This document shows, piece after piece, positions 22,656 through 23,509 of a DNA stretch of 23,509 nucleotides. Source of the stretch: a virus (Duplodnaviria > Heunggongvirae > Uroviricota > Caudoviricetes); IMG/VR virus record IMGVR_UViG_2713896786_000017. The stretch is one strand, 5' to 3'. Positions within the stretch are counted from its first letter, which is position 1. Each line of letters opens with the position of its first letter. The notes below the pieces were generated by a model, which saw nothing but the letters and a program-made list of their open reading frames with translations, was not told where the DNA came from and did not search any database. The translations under genes were made by a program, and so were the position numbers.

Positions 22656-23225
22656 ATGAAGATTTTTTTGGAGAATCTTTATCATTCTGATTGCTATTTC
22701 CTGCCGATAAGAGATAACCAGCAAGACCTTGTCGGCGTTGAGTTAATTACCCATTTCTCCAGTGAAGATGGTACGGTTCGTATCCCGACGAGTCGGGTTA
22801 TAGCGCAACTTACCGAGGAGCAACATTGGCAATTATTTTCAGAGCAGTTGGAATTACTAAAATCATGCCAACATTTTTTTATTCAACATAAACTCTTTGC
22901 CTGGCTTAATTTAACGCCACAAGTGGCTACATTATTATTAGAGAGGGATAATTACGCAGGCGAACTATTAAAATATCCGTTTATTGAACTGTTGATTAAT
23001 GAGAATTACCCGCATCTCAATGAAGGAAAAGATAATCGCGATCTTTTATCCTTATCGCAAATGTATCCCCTTGTGTTAGGCAATTTGGGAGCAGGTAATA
23101 GCACAATGAAAGCGGTTTTTGATGGTCTTTTCACCCGCGTCATGCTGGATAAAAGTTTTATTCAGCAACAAATCACGCATCGCTCCTTCGAACCGTTTAT
23201 TCGTGCGATCCAGGCGCAAATTTCC
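22656..23225 (+). pseudogene. ydiV: ydiV (EAL-like anti-FlhD4C2 factor) truncated by IS1; about the last 50 codons are displaced
   Basis: Track ORF 22656..23249 matches YdiV from MKIFLENLYHSDCYFLPIRD through ...FIRAIQAQISP, then reads VMTPTY-stop encoded by the IS1 terminal inverted repeat. Confidence 0.85.
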
Positions 23226-23509
23226 CCGGTAATGACTCCAACTTATTGATAGTGTTTTATGTTCAGATAATGCCCGATGACTTTGTCATGCAGCTCCACC
23301 GATTTTGAGAACGACAGCGACTTCCGTCCCAGCCGTGCCAGGTGCTGCCTCAGATTCAGGTTATGCCGCTCAATTCGCTGCGTATATCGCTTGCTGATTA
23401 CGTGCAGCTTTCCCTTCAGGCGGGATTCATACAGCGGCCAGCCATCCGTCATCCATATCACCACGTCAAAGGGTGACAGCAGGCTCATAAGACGCCCCAG
23501 CGTCGCCAT
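23226..23509 (-). mobile_element. IS1 insertion sequence, partial (runs off the window end)
   Basis: Begins with the IS1 terminal inverted repeat GGTAATGACTCCAACTTATTGATAGTG, followed by the insB 3' region on the minus strand. Confidence 0.9.
23243..23509 (-). CDS. insB: IS1 transposase InsB, C-terminal part (N-terminus outside window)
   Basis: Track ORF ends ...[51 protein letters not shown], the recognisable InsB C-terminus. Confidence 0.85.

Follow-up and report, generated by a model that had tools for sequence, protein, structure and literature searches.

The DNA analyzed here, referred to as the window, is a stretch of 23,509 nucleotides that corresponds to the entire draft contig LECH01000089.1 of assembly GCA_001309755.1. 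The parent record, LECH00000000, is the genome of Escherichia coli O104:H4 strain 11-3088, isolated from a patient in the 2011 outbreak in Germany. ABySS was used to assemble its 100-bp Illumina reads (515x coverage) into 173 contigs. The draft genome was published from a heat-resistance study, and the strain has also been used in stx-prophage promoter work and in a lettuce/peroxide transcription paper.

Most of the window, from position 1 to about 19340, is occupied by a prophage of the P2 family, whose genes cover lysis, the capsid, terminase and portal, a gpA replication endonuclease and a repressor/Cox-like pair. Its integrase lies at 17993-18928, integration was just upstream of btuC, and the listed O104:H4 genomes contain it with 100% identity. 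Between its portal and replication genes, at 9861-11139, it also encodes a ParM-like segregation ATPase together with a partition/stability protein, cargo that is unusual for a P2-like phage. Two matches on the minus strand score above the Rfam gathering threshold, a C4 antisense RNA (14802-14889, 76.5 bits) and the Hfq-binding sRNA IsrK (14925-14999, 63.5 bits), both in the prophage early region adjoining a gene annotated as encoding a 'derepression protein'. Between the integrase and btuC, an AT-rich (~40% GC) open reading frame of 131 amino acids (18939-19334, plus strand) has no family match and is probably cargo that the prophage carries at its attachment-site end. The left end of the window (<1-869) begins within a P2-like prophage gene encoding a DUF6645 protein, and parts of the window match two to three places in O104:H4 genomes. 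Both contig ends, at positions 1 and 23509, are probably repeat-induced assembly breaks.

Downstream of the prophage and of the btuCED genes, the right end of the window carries nlpC, the beginning of ydiV and the beginning of an IS1 element:

21945-22409, plus strand: nlpC, the conserved upstream neighbor of ydiV, named from the annotation of syntenic loci
22656-23227, plus strand: ydiV 5' fragment, nucleotides 1-572 of 714 (codons 1-190 and two bases of codon 191)
22656-23249, plus strand: fusion open reading frame of 197 amino acids, YdiV residues 1-191 followed by VMTPTY and a TGA within the IS1 inverted repeat
23219-23227, no strand assigned: predicted 9-bp target, AATTTCCCC, expected to occur again at the far IS1 end
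23228-23250, no strand assigned: IS1 right terminal inverted repeat, GGTAATGACTCCAACTTATTGAT
23228-23509, minus strand: partial IS1 comprising its right-end (IRR) 282 bp, with the transposase antisense to ydiV, ending with the contig
23243-23509, minus strand: final 88 codons of the IS1 transposase gene (3' part, insB region), matching PF03400

The identity of the interrupted gene is well established. The intact O104:H4 YdiV matches the crystallized protein (PDB 4ES4/3TLQ) over 237 of 237 residues with four substitutions (E = 7e-159), and nlpC lies upstream of ydiV as in all reference loci, while the selO side falls past the contig end. Relative to the crystallized K-12 protein (4ES4), O104:H4 YdiV carries V24D, G129D and V135M, together with A204T in the intact allele, and none of these positions is an FlhD contact residue. 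Window positions 22656-23227 are identical to the intact allele of O104:H4 strain 2011C-3493 over ydiV nucleotides 1-572 (572/572 bases), after which the two sequences diverge completely. The intact allele reads ATTTCCCCTTGTTGC across the site, with the codons CCT TGT TGC AAT (P191-C-C-N) at this point. In the window the same site reads CAAATTTCCCC followed directly by GGTAATGACTCC, placing the ydiV breakpoint after nucleotide 572, within codon 191. With the ydiV bases in lower case and the IS1 bases in upper case, the reading frame crosses the junction as ...gcg caa att tcc cc and then G GTA ATG ACT CCA ACT TAT TGA. Codon 191 still specifies proline, since IS1 begins with a G that makes it CCG, and the translation runs from ...AIQAQISP into VMTPTY and a stop. 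The insertion removes 46 of the 237 YdiV residues (192-237), leaving 81% of the protein encoded.

On the other side of the junction, all 282 bases from 23228 to the end of the contig are identical to four complete 768-bp IS1 copies of other E. coli, one of them from the O104:H4 strain 1070/13. The element begins with a terminal inverted repeat, which we take to extend over 23 bp in the window, and the same 18-mer bounds the full IS1 copies at the comparison loci. Read on the minus strand, the element encodes the final 88 transposase residues, which match the Pfam family DDE_Tnp_IS1 (PF03400, E = 5.7e-48) over profile positions 44-131 of 131. The sequence thus shows both a terminal inverted repeat at the host boundary and the internal InsAB' DDE transposase sequence of the IS1 family, and a chance likeness to the IS1 repeat alone is ruled out by the 282/282 identity.

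These results bear out the core of an earlier sequence-only reading of this DNA, which had named the gene ydiV and had described it as reading normally to ...AIQAQISP before entering an IS1 terminal inverted repeat that truncates it. The frame was read directly through the junction, and the two perfect matches, to ydiV and to IS1, meet at 23227/23228. That reading would have been undermined by a match to IS1 that broke down outside the terminal repeat, and the match instead holds to the last base of the contig. The comparison with reference strains that it had called for found ydiV whole at the same place in both 2011C-3493 and 1070/13. Two of its figures needed adjustment: the truncation was recognized correctly, but the loss is 46 C-terminal residues instead of about 50, and IS1 does lie in the interval given for the feature, 23200-23509, but begins only at 23228.

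A junction so near the end of a short-read de Bruijn contig could in principle be chimeric, with ydiV reads joined to IS1 reads in the absence of any true insertion. Several observations make such an artefact very improbable. First, the break falls precisely at the first base of the inverted repeat, which matches transposition, and ydiV and IS1 have no common repeat at the junction that could have misled the assembler. Second, the assembly rests on 515x coverage. Third, the identical 197-residue fusion protein is recorded in three GenBank accessions (KPO73288.1, OTV02047.1, and OTV12400.1), and an independent Logan assembly contains it as well. The protein cluster that holds the fusion has 242 members, many of which are truncated forms of YdiV, some from Shigella flexneri.

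Short-read assemblers are unable to span a multi-copy repeat, which accounts for the contig ending after 282 bp of IS1. The far end of the element, the duplicated target and the remaining 3' sequence of ydiV should therefore be on another contig. The event is probably a simple insertion of the 768-bp element with a 9-bp duplication, in which case the remainder of ydiV and selO would follow on that other contig. We favor a simple insertion because all 24 mapped copies of IS1 in ydiV, described below, are simple insertions with duplications of 8 or 9 bp. The predicted far side would read ...GGCAGCATCACC-AATTTCCCC-TTGTTGCAATTGC, with the IS1 end joined to AATTTCCCCTTGTTGCAATTGC. The open reading frame predicted at this right junction (MAASPISPCCNC...) and a shorter version with an internal start had no exact match in the sequence collection, a negative result that is uninformative because open reading frames this short are often uncalled. 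Among contigs encoding the fusion protein only the present one was found; four similar places lie on contigs of 20-50 kb, none of which crosses the IS1.

The alternative is that IS1 here marks the edge of a deletion, or of an inversion between IS1 copies, such that the 3' part of ydiV, possibly with selO and more, is missing or relocated. Nothing beyond the element is visible in the window, which ends within it, and events of this kind do occur at the locus, as in the O19:H7 strain 730V1, where IS1 lies beside a ydiV that lacks its 5' part. The contig end says nothing about rearrangement, however, as contigs that end in a multi-copy insertion sequence are expected in any short-read assembly, and all 24 mapped IS1 copies in ydiV are simple insertions. 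We therefore regard an IS1-mediated rearrangement as improbable, and a simple insertion remains the preferred description.

To place the allele within its lineage, the window was compared with complete genomes. Positions 1-23227 are 100% identical to 15 O104:H4-lineage genomes among the best matches listed, which include 2011C-3493, C227-11, HUSEC2011 and 2009EL-2050/2071. In the two genomes inspected, 2011C-3493 and 1070/13, ydiV is intact, with selO, hemP and aroH after it in both. A 610-base query spanning the junction gave no single contiguous match among 5,426 complete E. coli genomes; all near-full matches were in two or three pieces and represent IS1 elsewhere in or near ydiV. The absence of a contiguous junction from these 5,426 genomes indicates that only 11-3088 and resequenced derivatives of it carry the allele. 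The chromosome of 1070/13 has approximately 13 IS1 places, and the O104:H4 lineage carries IS1 of exactly the sequence seen in the window, active in this neighborhood.

Taken together, we consider it highly probable that an IS1 resident in O104:H4 made a simple insertion into ydiV in the 11-3088 lineage or stock, producing a likely null or hypomorphic allele. The resident element would have transposed either in the lineage of strain 11-3088 or in a laboratory stock of it, entering after nucleotide 572 with its transposase antisense to ydiV.

Other IS1 insertions were observed around the gene. In 1070/13 and its pAA- derivative, a private IS1 lies between btuD and nlpC with the duplication TAAAAAACA. 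This copy (24930-25697 of comparison locus L006) would fall after window base 21929, 15 bp upstream of the nlpC start, and its first 282 bases are identical to the IS1 part of the window. In BS90R-A, IS1 is found in the 5' end of selO with an 8-bp duplication, AAAATGCT; in TC24 and 1218KP it abuts the ydiV stop codon; further copies lie on the nlpC side; and in 730V1 IS1 is associated with the missing 5' part of ydiV.

The sequence-only reading had also presented the locus as a zone of mobile-element activity next to the prophage. The AT-rich nlpC-ydiV-selO interval does attract IS1, but the association with the prophage did not stand. A link between the prophage and IS1 was considered and rejected: the prophage ends about 3.3 kb upstream, contains no IS1, and is identical in O104:H4 genomes with intact ydiV.

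How frequently IS1 enters ydiV was surveyed with queries that joined ydiV to full IS1 in each orientation, searched against the 5,426 complete E. coli genomes. IS1 lies inside ydiV in at least 31 of these genomes, with the transposase antisense to the gene in at least 14 (where the match spans ~1,490 bp) and sense in at least 17, while about a dozen genomes carry IS1 in the 2.4 kb flanking ydiV. These counts are lower bounds, because the survey under-reports genomes having at least 40 IS1 pieces, several of which are added by the junction query. The density of IS1 in ydiV is approximately nine times that of the 2.4-kb flanks. Given some 59,000 chromosomal IS1 places, about 8 would be expected at random within 714 bp, against the at least 31 observed (Poisson P(>=31) = 2e-9, with shared ancestry ignored).

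The 24 loci that were mapped all contain full-length IS1 (766-768 bp) flanked by an 8- or 9-bp duplication. Their insertions fall at 18 positions between nucleotides 57 and 543 and make up 21 combinations of position and orientation. Three 9-bp targets were hit in both orientations, TCGCAAGTG (duplication ending at nucleotide 408), CCCCTTGTG (420) and CGAACCGTT (542), and at nucleotides 534/535 an opposite-orientation pair has duplications one base apart (CGCTCCTTC and GCTCCTTCG). At position 466, two IS1 variants are present, one sharing 93% and the other 99% identity with the reference copy. Because of the many positions, both orientations and the differing IS1 variants, nearly every mapped IS1::ydiV allele represents an independent event. 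Nucleotide 572, the site used in 11-3088, is a 19th position and the most 3' of the mapped sites.

IS1 prefers AT-rich targets, and ydiV has 41.7% GC compared with about 50% for btuCED-nlpC, so this preference may explain much of the recurrence. A stronger interpretation is that ydiV is a true IS1 hotspot in which repeated inactivation is driven by selection beyond the taste of the element for AT-rich DNA, such that the 11-3088 allele would be a case of parallel evolution. We regard this as a tentative idea that is rather less likely to be right than wrong. If it were true, selection could be acting in favor of higher or steadier flagellar expression or of changes in a YdiV-YdiU axis. What is new in this analysis is that IS1 enters ydiV recurrently: a literature search found no paper describing IS1 in ydiV, and its matches dealt with Tn5 screens or with insertion sequences located upstream of flhDC. 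Judging from the census, ydiV appears to be among the genes that IS1 disrupts repeatedly in wild E. coli, providing a natural set of alleles with which to probe the role of YdiV.

The functional consequence of the 11-3088 allele depends on whether the remaining protein retains activity. YdiV is a degenerate EAL-like protein that adopts a modified TIM-like barrel of eight strands and ten helices (PMC3510510). It binds FlhD through helices α6-α8, with α8 (residues 176-192) providing most of the contacts, and either A184E or F181A abolishes both FlhD binding and the effect on motility (PMC3510510). The breakpoint after residue 191 falls at the C-terminal end of α8; helices α6-α8 are retained, and all eight FlhD contacts listed in that study (F155, F168, H175, E179, F181, R183, A184, and Q188) are present in the 197-residue product. 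The complete EAL-like barrel is not, as VMTPTY and a stop codon take the place of residues 192-237. The Pfam EAL score falls from 33.9 bits for the intact protein to 19.9 bits for the fusion, below the cut-off of 31.3 bits, and profile positions 198-236 are absent. Judging by the order of the EAL motifs, the lost residues should correspond to the final two strand-helix units, approximately the last quarter of the barrel. An AlphaFold2 model of the 197-residue stump made without an alignment (mean pLDDT 45, pTM 0.35) was too poor for use.

Barrels that lack their last quarter are usually unstable. YdiV residues 1-191 with the VMTPTY tail would probably be misfolded or unstable because the last ~46 residues of the TIM-like barrel are gone, and the allele would accordingly be null or strongly hypomorphic. 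From the sequence, the stump is thus likely unstable and non-functional. Because all eight contacts and α6-α8 are kept, some residual FlhD binding is possible, and YdiV(1-191) might still act, wholly or in part, as an anti-FlhD4C2 factor, with little effect on motility and with selO polarity as the main consequence, if any. The position of the break at the end of α8 is compatible with such activity, as is the in-frame stop six codons into IS1, which means that the message is not a non-stop transcript. Weighed against these points are the removal of 46 residues from a single-domain TIM-like barrel and an EAL match that drops under the Pfam cut-off. In addition, the other natural IS1 alleles cut the gene at nucleotides 57-543 and give no hint that a functional stump is being preserved. 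An active stump is therefore unlikely, although less so than a rearrangement, and loss of YdiV function is the preferred reading.

Under loss of function, removal of the anti-FlhD4C2 factor would leave FlhD4C2 less sequestered. By analogy with characterized mutants, flagellar class II expression would be expected to be higher and less pulsatile, and spreading in soft agar faster. In EC958, an ST131 strain with H4 flagella, Tn5 insertions in ydiV are enriched at the edge of the swim zone and a ydiV deletion swims faster (PMC5425062). In K-12, YdiV turns noise in FlhDC levels into pulses of class II expression and is required for pulsing, although the authors of that study note that its importance in E. 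coli had been doubted (PMC7002133). The motility phenotype of the 11-3088 allele may be small, and no motility data for this strain were found in the literature.

A second effect could arise downstream. IS1 insertions are classically polar, and the element may lower the expression of selO (ydiU) if that gene is co-transcribed with ydiV. The selO/ydiU start lies 62 bp past ydiV, and a simple scan of the gap found no plus-strand terminator-like site. In Salmonella, a 2026 preprint describes ydiV and ydiU as one operon and proposes that YdiV is a de-UMPylase opposing YdiU. The short distance, the lack of a terminator-like site and the Salmonella operon together make reduced selO expression a possible second effect.

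These considerations bear on the use of strain 11-3088, which serves as a laboratory and food-safety model of the 2011 outbreak clone. Given a private lesion in ydiV, flagellar regulation in 11-3088 may not represent that of the outbreak strain, and if the IS1 is polar the same caution would extend to stress responses of 11-3088 that depend on selO/ydiU. This is relevant to comparisons of motility, biofilm formation, flagellin-dependent responses or stress that use this strain.

As an insertion, the event is an ordinary, textbook IS1 gene disruption. Compared with other disruptions by IS1 (IS1A/IS1B-type, 768 bp) in E. coli and Shigella, it has the same inverted repeat, 100% identity over the 282 visible bases, a break exactly at the tip of the element and an AT-rich target gene, differing in that only one end of the element is visible here. 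Close counterparts are other natural IS1::ydiV alleles, such as those of ATCC 43896 (nucleotide 534), EC20-72C-1 (542), ATCC 8739 (408), MINF_2E (420) and BEN2908 (421), which share the gene, the element and the truncation. The orientation seen in 11-3088 is that of about half of the other natural IS1::ydiV alleles, whereas its site, nucleotide 572, is used in none of the 24 mapped complete genomes and is the only mapped site that spares the whole of helix α8.

Among engineered mutants, EC958 ydiV::cam and Tn5 insertions and MG1655 ΔydiV offer the nearest functional parallel, with the same expected relief of FlhD4C2, hypermotility and loss of class II pulsing. Unlike the 11-3088 allele, which retains the coding sequence for 81% of the protein and whose effect is predicted, these are complete knock-outs with measured phenotypes. 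A second parallel is provided by IS1 and IS5 insertions upstream of flhDC in K-12 stocks, in which an insertion sequence likewise alters the circuit of the flagellar master regulator; those insertions raise motility, and such changes often arise during laboratory passage. The two differ in the level at which they intervene, as insertions upstream of flhDC activate its transcription, whereas the ydiV allele of 11-3088 would act post-translationally by removing the anti-FlhD4C2 factor.
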